In this document: piece after piece, positions 1 to 6,181 of the stretch
Layout of the letters: every line of letters begins with the position of its first letter
Numbering within the stretch: position 1 is the first letter of the stretch
IMG/VR virus record: IMGVR_UViG_2541047172_000022
Source: a virus
Lineage: Duplodnaviria; Heunggongvirae; Uroviricota; Caudoviricetes
Length of the DNA stretch: 6,181 nucleotides
Reading direction: 5' to 3' (one strand)
Program-made: the position numbers and the translations under genes
The notes under the pieces: generated by a model
What the model was told of the DNA's origin: nothing
The model's database searches: none
Seen by the model: the letters and a program-made list of their open reading frames with translations, nothing else

Positions 1-30
1 AAGCTTACCGGAATTGAAGCAGTTTTTACG

Positions 31-585
31 TCAAAAAGCAATAACTTTTTTCTCTATACCAAAAGCCATAACCATTGGTTTGTACAAAATAAATTCTGCC
101 ACCTTTAGCCAATGCTCAATGCGTCTTTCACAGGTTCTTAAACTCCATTCCGGATGTGCATCATTCAGCAGTTCAGCCATTTTGCGCTTAGTCATCCCCC
201 GCCCCACATAACGCTGACTCAGAACATTGAGCAGCCCGGGATAACCTGCCAGTACTTCACCAATAACCCTGTCGATTATTAACGCCTCTGAATCGGTACA
301 ATGCACCAGCCAGCTTTTTTGCTTGCCGTTGATCATATCCCGCAAAAAAGCCTCAAGTTTAGGTTTGTCCAGACCTGCTTTTTTCATCCTCCGGAGCGCC
401 TCGTTAATTGCCGTTTTTGTCAGCTTTTTAGAGGTCAGCAACTGGTTGAACATATTTCCCGTCTTACCGCCGCCAATATACGACCAGCGCCCCCACATAC
501 GTAGTTTCCCCTGAATCCAGACACTTTCCAGCGTGGTGAGACGAAGGTGCTCTCCGCTTTTTCCTGTGTTCGTTGGGTAAATCAT
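31..585 (-). CDS. Lambdoid prophage protein of unknown function, 184 aa, downstream of the nin-type genes (possibly a late-gene regulator; not lambda-Q-like)
   Basis: Frame is open from 705, but the ATG at 585..583 overlaps the stop of the upstream gene (ATGA at 585..582) and has an AGGA-like Shine-Dalgarno about 9 nt upstream, whereas the ATG at 705 has none and would overlap the upstream gene by 124 nt. G+C resembles the adjacent phage genes. No Cys-rich zinc-finger pattern typical of lambda Q. Function is a guess from position. Confidence 0.6.
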   Translation of the reverse strand: MIYPTNTGKSGEHLRLTTLESVWIQGKLRMWGRWSYIGGGKTGNMFNQLLTSKKLTKTAINEALRRMKKAGLDKPKLEAFLRDMINGKQKSWLVHCTDSEALIIDRVIGEVLAGYPGLLNVLSQRYVGRGMTKRKMAELLNDAHPEWSLRTCERRIEHWLKVAEFILYKPMVMAFGIEKKVIAF

Positions 586-872
586 AAATAACCGTCCTTT
601 CTCCAGATCTCTTGTGTGCGAAAAACACCTTCTGCATGCATCAGGCGCAATTCTTCTTTGGTGTAATCGCTGGTTTTTACTCTCCCGTCGATTAAATCGT
701 GGCATGAGTTACAGGCAATCGCTGCCTGCATATCGTGTGGCTTTATCGCTGTTCCGCACGTTCCCGCCAGCCTGTAATGCGCCAGCACAGAGGTTTCGGG
801 ATTGTGATTGCAGTAGCCAGGGATTCTGATCTGGCATATCTGGCCTTTAGCCGCTTTACGTAAATTCACCAT
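582..872 (-). CDS. DUF1364-family putative zinc-binding protein, YbcO-like (lambdoid prophage nin region), 96 aa
   Basis: 96-aa ORF with the pattern LRKAAKG..CQIRIPGYCNHNPETSVLAH.RL.G.CGT..KP.D...AIACNSCHD.IDGR, matching what I recall of E. coli DLP12 YbcO / DUF1364 (same length, same four-Cys arrangement). Start ATG 872..870 overlaps the upstream stop (TAATG). Confidence 0.85.
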   Translation of the reverse strand: MVNLRKAAKGQICQIRIPGYCNHNPETSVLAHYRLAGTCGTAIKPHDMQAAIACNSCHDLIDGRVKTSDYTKEELRLMHAEGVFRTQEIWRKDGYL

Positions 873-1471
873 TACGCAAACTCCAGTAGTTGTGCGGCCA
901 CATTTTCAACTTCCTCCTGAGAGGAGAATTTACGGAACAGAATCCAGTTCCACAGCACATTCAGTACAGATTTATAAACCTGCTGAAACTCGACTTCGTC
1001 CATATTCGCAAAAGCGATGGATTTTGCCCGACGCCCACGGCTACCGTCCGGATAAATATGCTCGGTGTAAAATCCGGCCTGAATGGTTACCCACTCGCGG
1101 AAAGCCTCAAACGACTTTAGCAACGCCGTATCCCGGGTTCTACGAGTCGCAACGGTGTTAAGGTATTGCTCTGCGGCATCACTCAGGGCTGGCGTGTGTT
1201 CCCGACCAACTGATTCGCACAGGTAATCAACGAAACCAGACAGCAGTTCTCGTTCGCGAGGCGTGATCGCCCCACCGACCGGAGTCCAGTAATCGAATCC
1301 CAGTTGCAGGAGTTTGAAAAAACGCTTGTGGAATGCGTAGTTACGCACACGCTTAAAATCTGCGTGTATCCACTCACCTATTTTGATTTGATGCAGAAAA
1401 TCGCAACTCTCCGGCGTCGCCGGGAGAAGTAAACCAGAAGAAGTTTGTTTGACCAGTTGTATATGCGCCAT
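872..1471 (-). CDS. Lambdoid prophage nin-region protein, DUF1367-like, 199 aa
   Basis: Uninterrupted 199-aa ORF, co-directional with and coupled to the YbcO-like gene (stop TAA 874..872 overlaps its ATG). Balanced G+C like the phage backbone. DUF1367 assignment is from remembered co-occurrence with DUF1364 in prophages, not from a search. Confidence 0.7.
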   Translation of the reverse strand: MAHIQLVKQTSSGLLLPATPESCDFLHQIKIGEWIHADFKRVRNYAFHKRFFKLLQLGFDYWTPVGGAITPRERELLSGFVDYLCESVGREHTPALSDAAEQYLNTVATRRTRDTALLKSFEAFREWVTIQAGFYTEHIYPDGSRGRRAKSIAFANMDEVEFQQVYKSVLNVLWNWILFRKFSSQEEVENVAAQLLEFA

Positions 1472-1890
1472 TTCTCAATCTCTCGATGGCGCAGTGCAGC
1501 AGATGCCAGTTGTTCAAGCTAGCACGCAAATTGTAAACCAGAATGCCAGGAAAAAACAAAACCCGCCGAAGCTGGTTGTGTGCGGTTGCGTTGAAGTCTC
1601 CTAGCCAAAGAGTAGCGGTGACCACTCCCCGCCGATAATCTTAGTTGTTTAATTTCGTAAGCTAACTAGGCTAAAAGCTCTCTGTTGTCTGCCTGTTGTA
1701 CAATTAACAAAATGAACAACGAACTAGATATACCAACGCCAGAATGGTGCAACAAATCCCAAACAACACAGCAATGCAACAATAACATATGTTATTTTCC
1801 TCTCACGGGATTCAGTCCTGAATTCTCATAAAGCTAATCTTTTTTTAAAAACATACTGTTAGATCACATGCACTTTCTTTCTTAACATCG

Positions 1891-1918
1891 TTGACTTCGC
1901 ATGCGAAGCGTTTAAAAT
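1891..1918 (+). promoter_or_regulatory. Putative sigma70 promoter of the ATPase operon (-35 TTGACT 1891..1896, 16-bp spacer, -10 TAAAAT 1913..1918)
   Basis: Near-consensus hexamers at near-optimal spacing, about 50 nt upstream of the ATG at 1971; a purine-rich AGAGAG lies about 8 nt before that ATG as a weak Shine-Dalgarno. Confidence 0.55.
1895..1908. promoter_or_regulatory. Perfect 14-bp palindrome CTTCGCATGCGAAG in the promoter spacer; putative operator
   Basis: Read directly: 1895..1908 is its own reverse complement, overlapping the last 2 nt of the -35 and filling most of the spacer. Confidence 0.45.
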
Positions 1919-1970
1919 CAACAATTTGCACTTAAGGTATTTATTTTCCCAAACACATAGAGAGTAAATT

Positions 1971-3362
1971 ATGACTGAGAACACGACTCCAACAGCAGAC
2001 TTTAGTCCTAGTAAAAGATTTTTTGTAAGTATGCTAACTCGAGATATCGACTTAAACGATGCCATACTTGATCTGCTTGATAACTGCGTCGATGGGGCTT
2101 TACGTACAATAAAAGACACAAAAAAAACTTCAAAACCATATGAAGGATTTTATGCGAAACTTACGATTAATAAAGATGTCTTTATTATAGAAGACAATTG
2201 CGGAGGTATCCCTAAAAGCTTCCGAGAATATGCTTTTAAAATGGGACGACCCCATCAAAAAGAAGAAGAAAATGAAGGCACCGTTGGCGTCTATGGTATT
2301 GGTATGAAAAGAGCCATTTTTAAAATGGGTAGAGATTGCTCAATACAATCGAATAATCCCGATGGCGCATTCACTGTAGATATAACACCTGATTGGATCG
2401 ATGGTGATGGTTGGAAAATACCGATGCACGAGAGTGACTATGATAACAAAAATCCAACAGGCACAACTATAGAGATAAAAAAACTCCATTCTAATGTGGC
2501 ACAAAAATTTAATGAGAGCACATATCTTACTGATCTCTTTTTACAGATAAAACACTCATTGTCATTTATTATTCAAAAAGGATTTAAAATAGAATTAAAT
2601 GGAGTTGTTGTTGAACATAATCCGATTAACATCATAACTGATCATTCTAAAATAGAACCATACATATATAAAGCTAAAATAGACGATGTTGATATCGATT
2701 TAGTTGTTGGCTTCTATAAAAATTTAGAAGATGACAATGATGATGTTTTAGAAAAAAGGAGTTCTGATGATGCTGGATGGACTGTCATTTGCAATGACCG
2801 CGTTGTTCTATATTGTGATAAGACACATCTCACAGGTTGGGGCTTTGCTAATGTACCAAGGTTTCATACCCAATTTATAGCAATTTCTGGGGTTGTTCGC
2901 TTTACCAGTAAAAACCCAGAAAAATTACCAATAACAACAACGAAACGAGGTGTCGATCTTAGTTCTACATTGTACAATGATGTACGAAATAAAATGATTG
3001 AAGGGATGATGCATTTTATTCGATTCACCAATCAGTGGAAAGGTGAGCATCTTGAAGAAGGGAAAAAATTACTTAAGTCAGCTCAGTCACATGAAGCTCA
3101 ATCTTTATTTGAAATTACCCCACAATCAACTCCAGAAGATAAAAAAAATAACTGGTCCAACCCTAATAGAAACAAAAATGAGTGGCGATATACACCTAAG
3201 CTGCCTACCCCAGTAAAAAAAAGCTCTACTGTACGAATAATCTTCACCAGAGAGAAAGAAGATGTTAAAATTTTATCTAAATATTTCTTTGGACATGAAG
3301 ATGCTAGCGCTTCTGATGTGGGGATGCAATGCTTTGATACGGTGATTGAAGAGGTGAAGTGA
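1971..3362 (+). CDS. GHKL (Bergerat-fold) ATPase, MORC/MutL-like, 463 aa; candidate motor of a restriction or defence module
   Basis: All four Bergerat motifs in canonical order in the N-terminal 170 aa: N-box DLLDNCVDGA (nt 2070..2099), G1 box IEDNCGGI (nt 2190..2213), G2 box GTVGVYGIGMKRAIFKMG with the G-x-G-x-K...G pattern I associate with MORC-type ATPases (nt 2277..2330), and motif IV PTGTTIEI (nt 2457..2471). The C-terminal ~290 aa has no motif I can assign. Long clean ORF. Confidence 0.85.
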   Translation: MTENTTPTADFSPSKRFFVSMLTRDIDLNDAILDLLDNCVDGALRTIKDTKKTSKPYEGFYAKLTINKDVFIIEDNCGGIPKSFREYAFKMGRPHQKEEENEGTVGVYGIGMKRAIFKMGRDCSIQSNNPDGAFTVDITPDWIDGDGWKIPMHESDYDNKNPTGTTIEIKKLHSNVAQKFNESTYLTDLFLQIKHSLSFIIQKGFKIELNGVVVEHNPINIITDHSKIEPYIYKAKIDDVDIDLVVGFYKNLEDDNDDVLEKRSSDDAGWTVICNDRVVLYCDKTHLTGWGFANVPRFHTQFIAISGVVRFTSKNPEKLPITTTKRGVDLSSTLYNDVRNKMIEGMMHFIRFTNQWKGEHLEEGKKLLKSAQSHEAQSLFEITPQSTPEDKKNNWSNPNRNKNEWRYTPKLPTPVKKSSTVRIIFTREKEDVKILSKYFFGHEDASASDVGMQCFDTVIEEVK

Positions 3363-4351
3363 TGTCTGGACAATACATTCCCTATCACTTAAGGCATAAT
3401 AAGTCTATTGATAGAGAGATTTTTCTCGAAAGCCTAAACCTCTTAAGCAAAAGACTAAATATTCAAGAATATACATATATAGGTTTTGGTGGTCCGATGC
3501 TTGAAGATTTTAGAATCATGCATAATCGTATCGCTCTTTCTGATATGATTTCTCTCGAAGAACAAGAGTCTACTCACATCAGACAAAAATATAATTTGCC
3601 TTATAATTGTATTGATTGTAAGCTAATATCAGCTCATGACTTTATTCTTGATTATAGTTTTTCTAAACCATCAATAACATGGTTAGACTATGCCTCCCCG
3701 AAAAAAATACAAACGGATCTAGATGATATACACTTACTAAGTACTAAAGTAAGCTCTTTTGATATTTTGAAGGTCACCTTCCCCATAAATCCTAGTTCTT
3801 ATTACCAACGTAGAGTTGGAGAAAGTTTAGATATTTTTAAAGAAGCTTTTATTAATTCATTAAAATCATTGCTTGGGAAAAAGTATCTTGATTTTAATCT
3901 TCAGATATCAAATGCAGATCTTTCAGATCGTAAGATTAAAGCTCTTTTAATACGAATTATTACAAACGCTTTTAGATCAGCAATAGAACGTGGTCTTTCA
4001 GGACGTAAGGATAAGATTCAGTATTACCCATTATCCTTAAATCAATATAATGATGGCAGTCATACCATGTTGACAATATCAGGTTTTTTCTCCTCAGAAC
4101 AAGAATATATAGAGTTATCTAAGGCATGCGACCTTTCTAACTGGCAATTTTATTCAACAAATTGGGAAGACGTGCAAGAAATAGCAATACCAACACTAAC
4201 AATTAAAGAAAAGATAAATTTAGATAGTAAACTGCCTGATAAAGAAGCATATCAGGCAGCCGCTGAAGAGTTCTCTTTAAACGAAAATGAACGGGATAAC
4301 TATTATAAATACTATAGGTTATACCCTAACTTCCAAAGAATTATGGTTTAA
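3362..4351 (+). CDS. Uncharacterised partner protein of the GHKL ATPase, 329 aa from the ATG at 3362; candidate effector or specificity subunit
   Basis: The ATG at 3362 overlaps the ATPase stop (TGATG, 3360..3364) and has GAGGTG 5 nt upstream; the in-frame GTG at 3359 is too close to that SD. Same AT-rich composition as the ATPase. No PD-(D/E)xK, HNH, PLD, Walker or methyltransferase motif could be confidently identified by eye; there is a CxxC pair (YNCIDCK) and a glycine-rich IGFGGP segment. Confidence 0.8.
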   Translation: MSGQYIPYHLRHNKSIDREIFLESLNLLSKRLNIQEYTYIGFGGPMLEDFRIMHNRIALSDMISLEEQESTHIRQKYNLPYNCIDCKLISAHDFILDYSFSKPSITWLDYASPKKIQTDLDDIHLLSTKVSSFDILKVTFPINPSSYYQRRVGESLDIFKEAFINSLKSLLGKKYLDFNLQISNADLSDRKIKALLIRIITNAFRSAIERGLSGRKDKIQYYPLSLNQYNDGSHTMLTISGFFSSEQEYIELSKACDLSNWQFYSTNWEDVQEIAIPTLTIKEKINLDSKLPDKEAYQAAAEEFSLNENERDNYYKYYRLYPNFQRIMV

Positions 4352-5470
4352 ATATTCGGGCTGTACTCTTTTATTTAATAAATTGTACAGCCCCTTTAAT
4401 ATATATTCAGCAACTATTGGTGACACGCTATTTCCTATTTGTCTGAAACTATGCCATTTAGTTACATGAAAGCGAAACCAATCAGGGAAGCCTTGTAATC
4501 TAGCAGCTTCTCTTGGTGTAATCACTCTTGGATGATAAGGGTGGATCGGCCTGACGGCTTGAAAGCTTCCTTTATCTCTAGCGGTTCCCGCCCTTAAAGT
4601 CGGGCAAAAACCATTTGGATCTAATCTTGTAGATCTTGAAATTTTATCAGTTTCCCCAAAAGATAAGGAAGCATAACGCTCTTGGACGATTTTGCTATGT
4701 AATGTTCCGGTACATCCAGATATGATATTATTTTTTAACTTAGCGATCGATTCTGTATCACCAACATTCCGAGGGATCTGCCCCCATAATTTTTCATAAA
4801 ATCCCCCTTTTCGATCTTTTTTAATTGTTCGCCAACTCTCAGAGTCTGATTGCCAATTGGCATCGATAATATCTGGTAATCCATACAAAGCATCTTTTAC
4901 AGTAACCGGATCAATCATTTTAGGCATAAATACTTCATCTGAAATATCAAGCTTCAATGATTTTTTTACACCGATAAAAAAATATCTAGTTCGAATAGTT
5001 GGAGCACCATAATCAGATGCTTTTACCTTGATGGGATCAAGAATATCATAATCACCGCTAACCAAATTAAATGCTTTATTTCTAATGCCAGAATATTTCT
5101 CTTGCATAATACCTGGAACATTTTCTGCCAAAAAGAATAATGGCTGTAATTCTGATACTAAACGGTAGAAATGCATGTAAAGCTGATTCCTGCTATCATC
5201 AGGATTCCCCTTGCCTATTGAACTAAATCCTTGGCACGGAGGACCGCCAATAATACCATCTATGGGCATATCGTTTTTAAAAAAACCCTTAATTATTTCT
5301 GCATTTAGTAAAGAAACATCTTCTTGGACGTGCAAACTTCTTGGAAAATTAATTGCGTGAGTATTAATAGCATGTTGATCAATTTCAACTGCCATTTTAA
5401 CATCAAATCCAGCACGTGCAGCACCAAGACTTAGACCTCCAACGCCAGAAAACAAATCTATTACATTCAT
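4319..5470 (-). CDS. DNA cytosine-C5 methyltransferase, 383 aa
   Basis: Canonical C5-MTase motifs in order: I DLFSGVGG (FxGxGG, nt 5435..5458), IV GGPPCQGFS with catalytic Cys79 (codon 5234..5236), VI FLAENVPG (ENV), VIII PTIRTRYFFIG, IX/X RVITPREAARLQGFPDWF and QIGNSVSP. A variable region between VIII and IX is consistent with a target-recognition domain. Confidence 0.92.
   Translation of the reverse strand: MNVIDLFSGVGGLSLGAARAGFDVKMAVEIDQHAINTHAINFPRSLHVQEDVSLLNAEIIKGFFKNDMPIDGIIGGPPCQGFSSIGKGNPDDSRNQLYMHFYRLVSELQPLFFLAENVPGIMQEKYSGIRNKAFNLVSGDYDILDPIKVKASDYGAPTIRTRYFFIGVKKSLKLDISDEVFMPKMIDPVTVKDALYGLPDIIDANWQSDSESWRTIKKDRKGGFYEKLWGQIPRNVGDTESIAKLKNNIISGCTGTLHSKIVQERYASLSFGETDKISRSTRLDPNGFCPTLRAGTARDKGSFQAVRPIHPYHPRVITPREAARLQGFPDWFRFHVTKWHSFRQIGNSVSPIVAEYILKGLYNLLNKRVQPEYLNHNSLEVRV
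4357..4394 (+). terminator. Hairpin downstream of the ATPase-operon stop (9-bp stem GGGCTGTAC / GTACAGCCC, 18-nt loop, then CTTTAAT); weak candidate terminator
   Basis: Perfect 9-bp inverted repeat at 4358..4366 and 4385..4393, starting 6 nt after the partner-gene stop. It lies inside the 3' coding region of the convergent methyltransferase. The large loop and short T-run make it a weak intrinsic terminator. Confidence 0.25.
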
Positions 5471-5502
5471 ATAGTTGCAACGTCTCTTATTAGTTTCTAT
5501 GT

Positions 5503-5532
5503 ATTATAACACAACTGTTCTTGATGTTTTAA
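5503..5532 (-). promoter_or_regulatory. Putative methyltransferase promoter with extended -10 (TGtTATAAT) and weak -35 (TTAAAA, 18-bp spacer)
   Basis: On the minus strand a perfect TATAAT (complement of 5503..5508) is preceded by TGT (5509..5511), with TTAAAA at 5527..5532. It sits about 30 nt upstream of the ATG at 5470. Confidence 0.5.
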
Positions 5533-5732
5533 CCCCATAAGATAACCTCATAAAGGCTATCCCTTGAAAATACCGGATCGCATAAATTTAATCTTTCAAA
5601 ACTACTTGTCTATTAATCGAGCAATTTAAGGTTGTTTTAGTCATGTCGATACCGACATAGTTAACTAAACCCATTTCATCGTCCAACAAATGGGGGTAAT
5701 ACACTTTGATTTATAGTCGGGTGGGTTTTTCT

Positions 5733-5767
5733 CTATCTGCCTTTGGTGTTCATGCCCAAGGCAGATA
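5733..5767. repeat. Imperfect inverted repeat (CTATCTGCCTTTGG ... CCAAGGCAGATAG) at the right edge of the island
   Basis: Arms of about 13 bp with one bulged T, around a 9-nt loop, immediately after GGGTGGGTTTTT. No U-run follows the stem on either transcript, so it is not a canonical intrinsic terminator. Confidence 0.4.
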
Positions 5768-5821
5768 GCCTCAAGCACCCGCAGCAATTCTACTTAACTA
5801 TCCTTTTCCCGCAAATCGTTT

Positions 5822-5905
5822 TTATCCCCAGCGGCAAATCGAATACACAACCAGCGCCACCGCCATCGCAATTCCTACCGTTGTGAATGCTTCAGGCCAG
5901 GTCAT
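5822..5905 (-). CDS. Possible small hydrophobic protein, 27 aa (MTWPEAFTTVGIAMAVALVVYSICRWG)
   Basis: Its ATG (5905..5903) overlaps the stop of the 63-aa ORF (ATGA) and is preceded by GGAGGTG about 6 nt upstream. The product has a hydrophobic core typical of small membrane peptides. It was translated by hand and is below the ORF-track size cutoff. Confidence 0.3.
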   Translation of the reverse strand: MTWPEAFTTVGIAMAVALVVYSICRWG

Positions 5906-6093
5906 TGATTCACCTCCTGCGGCGGTTCTGGTAGCGACATCCAGTGGGTTGCTTGCCTAAGATCATTACCCGGACTAACTGCTATACCTCCGCGCCGGAA
6001 CGTGCCTCCGAGATAGCGTGCGGAATATATTAATGGCCCAGCCTCGCTATCGATATTCATCGAAATAAGCACGTTCTGGCTCTTTTCAGGCAT
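5902..6093 (-). CDS. Hypothetical prophage protein, 63 aa
   Basis: ORF with phage-like G+C, co-directional with the other phage genes, starting 4 nt after the stop of the partial upstream ORF. No family recognised. Confidence 0.5.
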   Translation of the reverse strand: MPEKSQNVLISMNIDSEAGPLIYSARYLGGTFRRGGIAVSPGNDLRQATHWMSLPEPPQEVNQ

Positions 6094-6097
6094 TCGC

Positions 6098-6181
6098 TCA
6101 GTACAGCTTATCCAGCCATCCAGAGTTATCGGAGATCTGGTTGACGTTTCCGAGATTTCCCGAAAATTGTTGGTTGACGAA
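6098..6181 (-). CDS. 3' end of a prophage gene running off the window (C-terminal 27 aa ...FVNQQFSGNLGNVNQISDNSGWLDKLY, stop at 6098..6100)
   Basis: Open frame from the window edge, hand-translated, ending in TGA 4 nt upstream of the next ATG. Identity unknown. Confidence 0.45.
   Translation of the reverse strand, partial: FVNQQFSGNLGNVNQISDNSGWLDKLY

Follow-up and report, generated by a model that had tools for sequence, protein, structure and literature searches.

A perfect palindrome in the ATPase promoter of a prophage CP-933R/Sp10 cassette is most likely a sequence accident

The analysis of a 6,181-nucleotide stretch of viral DNA (hereafter the window) led us to the view that positions 1891-1918 (TTGACTTCGCATGCGAAGCGTTTAAAAT) most probably constitute an ordinary, conserved sigma-70 promoter whose spacer became palindromic by chance in one lineage. 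The palindrome, CTTCGCATGCGAAG at 1895-1908, is perfect over 14 bp and exactly self-complementary, as a sequence-only reading of this DNA had described it. That reading had also proposed that the site would let a dimeric regulator occlude RNA polymerase. Since all related promoter copies are without the palindrome, it is most likely a sequence accident rather than a real regulatory element.

The window originates from CP-933R/Sp10, a lambdoid prophage of E. coli O157:H7. Over positions 1-5905 the window matches, at 100% identity, a prophage region that 172 complete E. coli genomes share, among them that of O157:H7 EDL933 (NZ_CP008957.1, 2155937-2161841), and published work on Z2389/ECs1953, which is also the source for its description as a methyltransferase, places this gene in CP-933R/Sp10 (PMC1890555). 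Because the match to the 172 genomes stops at 5905, the right end of the window (5906-6181, with a DUF551 open reading frame at 5902-6093 on the minus strand) must therefore come from another prophage mosaic variant than that of EDL933. The minus strand carries the phage genes DUF1367, a YbcO-like gene and a Q-type antiterminator gene (DUF1133). In EDL933 tRNAs and lysis genes come after these, and early-right and late phage transcription therefore run on the minus strand. An AT-rich insert of three genes separates the replication genes from DUF1367; it appears to be a compact, mobile and convergent cassette (~1865-5545) inserted in the nin region of CP-933R/Sp10.

The first gene of the plus-strand operon (1971-3362; Z2386/ECs1955; RefSeq WP_000138556.1) encodes a GHKL-type ATPase, in which the GHKL domain is the sole domain recognised with Pfam (HATPase_c_3, E = 2.9e-9); an SD-like GAGAG at 1960-1964 precedes it. 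Its stop is overlapped by the start of the second gene (3362-4351, plus strand; Z2387/ECs1954), a member of the Methyltransf_35 family (PF20553, E = 2e-89). The AlphaFold model of the PF20553 protein (pLDDT 89.3) has class I SAM-dependent methyltransferases as its top PDB matches, and the protein is thus predicted to adopt a class I methyltransferase fold. The third gene (4319-5470, minus strand; Z2389/ECs1953) encodes a C5 DNA cytosine methyltransferase (Pfam DNA_methylase, E = 2.6e-61, residues 1-361 of 383) that is practically identical to PDB 3G7U (E = 1.3e-254), an entry annotated to prophage CP-933R. This gene is convergent with the ATPase operon and overlaps it by 33 bp at the 3' ends (4319-4351). 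Just past the PF20553 stop, in the last codons of the convergent methyltransferase gene, there is an inverted repeat with a 9-bp stem (GGGCTGTAC...GTACAGCCC, 4358-4393), which could be a terminator of the ATPase operon inside the overlapping gene.

Comparison of the cassette with its relatives also delimited its ends. On the left, similarity among versions begins ~25-30 bp upstream of the -35 hexamer of the ATPase promoter (~1865). On the right, the methyltransferase gene is preceded by a predicted promoter with an extended -10 (TGTGTTATAAT; 5503-5532, minus strand; a 10/12 match with TG), of which TGnTAnAnT is kept in seven cassette versions, and similarity ends ~35-40 bp upstream of it. The putative mobile unit would thus measure ~3.7 kb, with one conserved inward-facing promoter at each end. 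Just right of the cassette, the minus strand at 5656-5780 resembles the sok antitoxin RNA family at a sub-threshold score (RF01794; 50.2 bits vs a gathering score of 59, E = 3e-9), which suggests a remnant of a hok/sok-like type I toxin-antitoxin system.

The ATPase promoter itself consists of the -35 hexamer TTGACT (1891-1896), a 16-bp spacer (1897-1912) and the -10 hexamer TAAAAT (1913-1918), all on the plus strand. Each hexamer matches the consensus at five of six positions (10/12 in total), 52 nt separate the -10 from the ATG, and transcription is predicted to start at about 1924-1926. The sequence-only reading had placed the palindrome between the two hexamers. This is correct for its downstream end, which lies 4 nt before the -10, and incorrect for its first two bases (CT), which are the last two of the -35. 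The palindrome is the sole GC-rich element of an otherwise AT-rich promoter and contains four cytosines per strand. Promoter-like matches are not enriched in the window (20 found vs 17.3 expected), so the reality of this promoter rests on its position and conservation and not on the consensus scan.

We asked how often a palindrome of this kind is expected by chance. In dinucleotide shuffles of the whole window, the mean number of perfect 14-bp palindromes was 0.48 and 40% of the shuffles had at least one; for a 6-kb scan the palindrome is unremarkable. In narrower frames the numbers were lower: shuffles of the 499-bp intergenic region gave an expectation of 0.04, where two perfect palindromes of at least 14 bp are present, and the analytic chance of one falling wholly within this 28-bp promoter is ~9e-4. 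The other intergenic palindrome, AATAACATATGTTATT (16 bp, 1781-1796), is located ~100 bp upstream of the promoter, in a 270-bp stretch (~1595-1865) that is part of neither the phage backbone nor the conserved cassette. The narrow-frame statistics lean to function. Statistics alone are not decisive here, and it is the comparison with homologous loci that decides.

The 70-nt promoter is the same in each of the 173 E. coli genomes that have the island, the single SNP (at 1870) being outside it, and this invariance leaves no within-lineage test. The ATPase family is large (of the 8000 candidates that the protein search scored, 5430 reached E ≤ 1e-10), and relatives of the ATPase form a graded series of 87-58% identity. 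From the contigs of such relatives and three diverged viral contigs we assembled eight distinct cassette versions including that of the window; the ATPases of the others are 75-87% identical to the one in the window, and their promoters align without gaps. The convergent three-gene layout recurs in the relatives' contigs except those of Serratia, which are without the methyltransferase gene. The cassette is often found at the same lambdoid-prophage site, between the replication genes and DUF1367; in an Enterobacter chromosome it lies beside a resolvase. Closer relatives (87-100%) were sought in metagenome and viral contigs with the ATPase and two MT35 proteins of 89-90% identity, and the scans returned identical copies or already known loci only. 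The plasmid collection had no match, and the phage collection yielded a single distant homologue, in Pseudomonas Pf phage PfAC20 (32% identity), where the methyltransferase gene lies downstream on the same strand and there is no comparable promoter. The scan of genome contigs added relatives of 41-47% identity only. In most of these the methyltransferase gene is directly upstream in the same operon, and there is consequently no ATPase-proximal promoter to compare.

The promoter of the window reads TTGACT-TCGCATGCGAAGCGTT-TAAAAT (-35, spacer, -10). Its counterparts are TTGACA-ATCAATCAGAAGTGCT-TAGAAT (L101), TTGACA-TCCCTATCGAAGCGCT-TAAAAT (L083), TTGACT-TCACATTGCAAGTGCA-TAGAAT (L084), TTGACT-TCATCCTTCAAGTGCA-TAAAAT (L113), TTGACT-TAGCTGGTGAAGCATT-TAGTAT (L103), TTGACA-TACTTTTATCAATATC-TATCAT (L104) and TTGACA-TGTATTTTGCAATCAT-TATTAT (L085). 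TTGAC[A/T] is thus in register in all eight versions (mean pairwise identity of the -35, 0.90), and TAnnAT is invariant in the same eight (mean pairwise identity of the -10, 0.77). The spacer measures 16 bp in each of them, with a mean pairwise identity of 0.43; the flanks are at 0.28-0.44 over the 40 nt upstream and at 0.35 further downstream, and the distance from the -10 to the ATPase ATG varies between 43 and 54 nt. This pattern points to selection on the hexamers and on their 16-bp spacing, with a spacer sequence that seems to drift neutrally. Near-consensus hexamers, a separation in the 16-18 bp range, a plausible distance to the gene and purifying selection together place the element in the sigma-70 class, and the near-consensus ATPase promoter proposed from the sequence is borne out by the comparison. 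As judged from its conservation, 1891-1918 is a real, ordinary sigma-70 promoter of the operon for the ATPase and the methyltransferase-fold protein, and we infer that it is active.

Downstream of the spacer, the IHF core consensus WATCAANNNNTTR is matched by a conserved block (AATCAACAATTTG, 1916-1928, plus strand) that takes in the last bases of the -10 together with the predicted start site. The motif is in the same register in six of the eight promoter versions, and the block is better conserved than the spacer; the window has two IHF core matches vs 0.66 expected. The block may be an IHF site, or it may reflect a constraint on the discriminator or the initial transcribed sequence.

In the palindrome register, the seven other versions pair at 2, 4, 4, 4, 4, 1 and 1 of the seven positions, and only the E. 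coli version is palindromic. The pairs that recur among the relatives are those of the outer CTT, which largely belongs to the -35, with a semi-conserved AAG (three pairs). The inner positions are unpaired, and the left half-site is practically unconserved among versions. The sequence-only reading had suggested a search for the same palindrome upstream of homologous operons and had named a lack of conservation there as evidence against its proposal; with at most four of seven pairs in any other version, the palindrome is not conserved in homologous loci. This comparison can refute an operator shared by the whole cassette family, though not one that arose in the E. coli lineage only.

These observations are best explained by a neutral origin of the palindrome, in which a drifting spacer would have become a perfect 14-bp palindrome in the E. 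coli O157:H7 / O111:H8 lineage. Quasi-palindrome mutagenesis is established in E. coli, with hotspots such as that in thyA. The cassette resembles that case in having imperfect repeats in relatives (the 4/7 versions include CTTCACATTGCAAG and CATCCCTATCGAAG) and a perfect one in a single lineage, with the differences at inner positions. Given the 4/7 quasi-palindromes at the same place in the relatives, a single template switch during replication, a 'quasi-palindrome correction', could have perfected the palindrome in one step. This parallel would bear only on how the palindrome may have arisen. The palindrome is, most likely, needless for the promoter and no binding site for a regulator encoded by the cassette or the prophage, as far as the compared sequences tell.

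We also considered whether another dyad takes the place of the palindrome in the relatives. For six of the seven other promoters, the best surrounding dyad was no better than in shuffles. In L103, the exception, a dyad with 8-bp arms follows closely on the -10 (P = 0.012, uncorrected for the seven tests). This dyad, TGGATTATGGATAATCCA, spans about +3 to +20 after the -10. In L085 a dyad read by eye, GGATATATCC, lies at about +14 to +23 after the -10. Both have GGAT...ATCC ends, and the window has no dyad at either place. Upstream of 21 further homologous operons, just three dyads reached P ≤ 0.05, at unrelated positions.

Published expression data bear on the state of the promoter in lysogens. 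A growth-transition comparison in strain Sakai recorded a joint decrease of ECs1954 (2.6-fold) and ECs1955 (3.2-fold) (PMC2241611), and uninduced EDL933 contained the Z2386 protein within a higher-order assembly (PMC3210124). We infer from the gene order beside Z2389/ECs1953 (PMC1890555) that these identifiers correspond to the MT35 and ATPase genes. The co-variation of the two transcripts and the presence of the protein in uninduced cells are consistent with a promoter that operates in lysogens and is not kept firmly closed by a repressor. Z2389 is listed in an RpoS-regulon table (PMC2907692) with a value of -9, which according to the table denotes negative regulation by RpoS, and an in-vivo surface proteome included it as well. 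Taken with the decreases in Sakai, these entries indicate that the cassette is expressed in lysogens and responds to growth phase there.

A different possibility is that the palindrome is an operator of the O157/O111 lineage only, at which a dimeric host or prophage factor over the -35 and spacer competes with RNA polymerase and tunes the ATPase operon. We regard this as unlikely, while noting that the dyad is perfect and sits where repressors act, that its nominal chance in the promoter is low (the ~9e-4 given above), and that the mRNA level of the operon responds to growth phase (PMC2241611). Against it, no candidate regulator emerged. Six small open reading frames in or beside the island had no Pfam match at E ≤ 1; of the eight frames scanned in all, the remaining two lie in the phage backbone, and one of these, outside the island, gave the one Pfam match, to DUF551, which is no HTH family. 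The EDL933 annotation likewise contains no small HTH controller gene, in keeping with the earlier remark that no separate gene of this kind is evident. A second copy of the palindrome with up to three mismatches was found neither elsewhere in the window nor in 22 kb of the EDL933 prophage; the 22 kb take in the immunity region, where the repeated words that look like operators (AGTACAT...) bear no relation to the palindrome. The exact 14-mer occurred in 72 stretches of the 2.9 million viral contigs of IMG/VR, of which 11 were this island and 61 were unrelated; 55 of the latter lay within long open reading frames and none had a shared promoter context. The palindrome is not a recurrent viral promoter element. 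Comparison with the consensus sites of some known regulators (LexA, GlpR, EvgA, C-box and MerR type) gave no convincing match.

Two further points weigh against such an operator. The E. coli version differs from the 4/7 versions of the relatives at inner positions only, as drift or template switching would give, and with Z2386 protein present in uninduced cells (PMC3210124) any repression would not be tight. The proposal of a dimeric regulator that occludes RNA polymerase thus finds a site that is not conserved, is present once, differs from the prophage operators and has no HTH gene beside it. Marginally less probable again is the more specific version in which this recent, O157/O111-only operator allows a dimeric regulator of E. 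coli or of a co-resident prophage to throttle a widespread but uncharacterised cassette of restriction-modification-like make-up. If true, the host would have domesticated an incoming defence-type module by making a repressor site in a neutral spacer.

The cytosines of the palindrome raise the alternative that the promoter is methylation-sensitive. Here the C5 methyltransferase of the cassette would modify cytosines in the palindrome (e.g. in GCATGC or at the two CG steps) and so set the expression of the operon, in the manner of CfrBI. The enzyme is encoded in the same cassette, and the palindrome with its four cytosines per strand is the only GC-rich element of the promoter; a C5 methyltransferase combined with a palindrome in the promoter of its partner genes is also a feature of CfrBI and of the HTH-methyltransferases. 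We nevertheless hold this explanation to be improbable. The target-recognition region of the methyltransferase is not swapped among relatives (59-81% identical vs 62-82% for the catalytic part), and because it tracks the catalytic domain, the specificity is probably shared among them. In contrast to the methylation-controlled CfrBI promoter, the eight promoter versions have no candidate target motif in common, and outside the -35 no 4- or 5-mer is common to the eight spacers. GCATGC is moreover not unusual in the window (three sites vs 1.3 expected).

Autoregulation by one of the three cassette proteins, which would bind the palindrome and delay or limit the ATPase operon as controller proteins do, appears very improbable. 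The module is restriction-modification-like, a setting in which timing control is common, and the position of the palindrome would suit promoter occlusion. Yet the cassette proteins are 62-87% identical among versions, while the putative operator is missing from the seven other versions and no substitute dyad is present. A C gene, paired operators and a GACT-N3-AGTC motif are all missing, and the PF20553 protein has a plain methyltransferase fold in its predicted model. A Pfam HTH or other recognisable DNA-binding regulator domain is absent from all cassette proteins, and the methyltransferase starts with MNVIDLFSGVGG, directly at catalytic motif I, with no N-terminal DNA-binding extension. 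The suggestion that an island protein might be the regulator therefore loses its footing, as the proteins are conserved and the site is absent in seven versions. Least credible of all is a structural role as a cruciform, or as a hairpin or terminator in crossing transcripts such as the antisense phage early ones: the sequence is self-complementary and early-right phage transcription passes antisense through the region, but the hairpin has just a 5-bp stem and a 4-nt loop, neither strand has a T/U run after it, the terminator scan was negative, folding is ordinary (DNA z = -0.62; minus-strand RNA z = -0.52), and the palindrome is not conserved.

We compared the region with known systems. The C-box operators of C.PvuII, C.AhdI and C.Esp1396I likewise have a palindrome over the -35 and spacer in a methyltransferase-bearing module. 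In contrast to these, the cassette has a single dyad that is not paired, no C gene, no GACT...AGTC half-sites and no conservation in homologues; the GACT at 1893 is not followed by AGTC, and a second dyad with up to three mismatches is absent. Control by a C protein and C-box was rejected, with neither a controller gene, nor paired operators, nor a conserved or co-varying operator being found. MerR-family operators share with the palindrome the location of a dyad inside the -35/-10 spacer. MerR-type promoters have an over-long spacer of 19-20 bp that is remodelled by the regulator, whereas the spacer here is 16 bp and the promoter is apparently active in uninduced cells. The 16-bp spacer in all versions excludes a MerR-type operator; next to the promoter there is no merR-family gene, the divergent neighbour being the phage DUF1367 gene. 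The self-regulating C5 methyltransferases M.SsoII, M.EcoRII and M.MspI have an N-terminal HTH, whereas Z2389 is without an N-terminal domain; with its DNA_methylase domain beginning at residue 1, it was not assigned to this type. An intrinsic terminator or structured hairpin was ruled out by the terminator scan and the ordinary folding energies, and Rfam returned nothing at the palindrome.

The promoter at 1891-1918 behaves like a prophage moron promoter. Moron promoters are autonomous sigma-70 promoters of accessory genes that sit between phage genes and are expressed in the lysogen. Like these, it is a sigma-70 promoter close to consensus that borders an AT-rich accessory insert in a lambdoid nin region, the cassette genes are expressed in uninduced cells, and the ATPase operon runs against phage early transcription. 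A difference is that the cassette has two facing promoters, whereas a classic moron consists of a single promoter, gene and terminator.

Beyond the lambdoid prophages, the triad of C5 methyltransferase, GHKL ATPase and PF20553 protein is kept in 70 of 80 distant loci (L003-L082), with ATPases that are 41-47% identical. It occurs in many bacterial phyla, in one archaeal genome and in a Pseudomonas Pf filamentous phage, and the methyltransferase gene is usually the first of one operon. The PADLOC defence library held no match for the ATPase or the PF20553 protein, and literature searches on PF20553, on the RefSeq protein accessions and on defence systems that combine GHKL and C5 methyltransferase proteins retrieved no description. 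WASA of Vibrio, a GHKL-Shedu fusion, is a different system. The triad looks like an uncharacterised restriction-modification-like or defence module.

Altogether, our preferred reading of the region as an ordinary sigma-70 promoter with an incidental palindrome illustrates how a promoter may contain a perfect and eye-catching palindrome by accident, which a few diverged homologous loci are enough to reveal. A true operator here would have been a lead to a regulator of the cassette. Work on the cassette can instead start from an ATPase operon that has a conserved sigma-70 promoter and no recognisable conserved operator, and, as a by-product, the promoters and boundaries of the compact convergent cassette (~1865-5545) are now set by conservation. 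In all lambdoid contexts the methyltransferase gene is oriented along the direction of phage early-right transcription and the ATPase operon in the opposite one. This orientation suggests that timing may be achieved by transcriptional interference. When the phage infects or is induced, the methyltransferase would be expressed from antiterminated early transcripts, which would run head-on into transcription of the ATPase operon; in the lysogen nothing would obstruct the promoter of that operon. The result would be a methylase-first timing that needs no controller protein.
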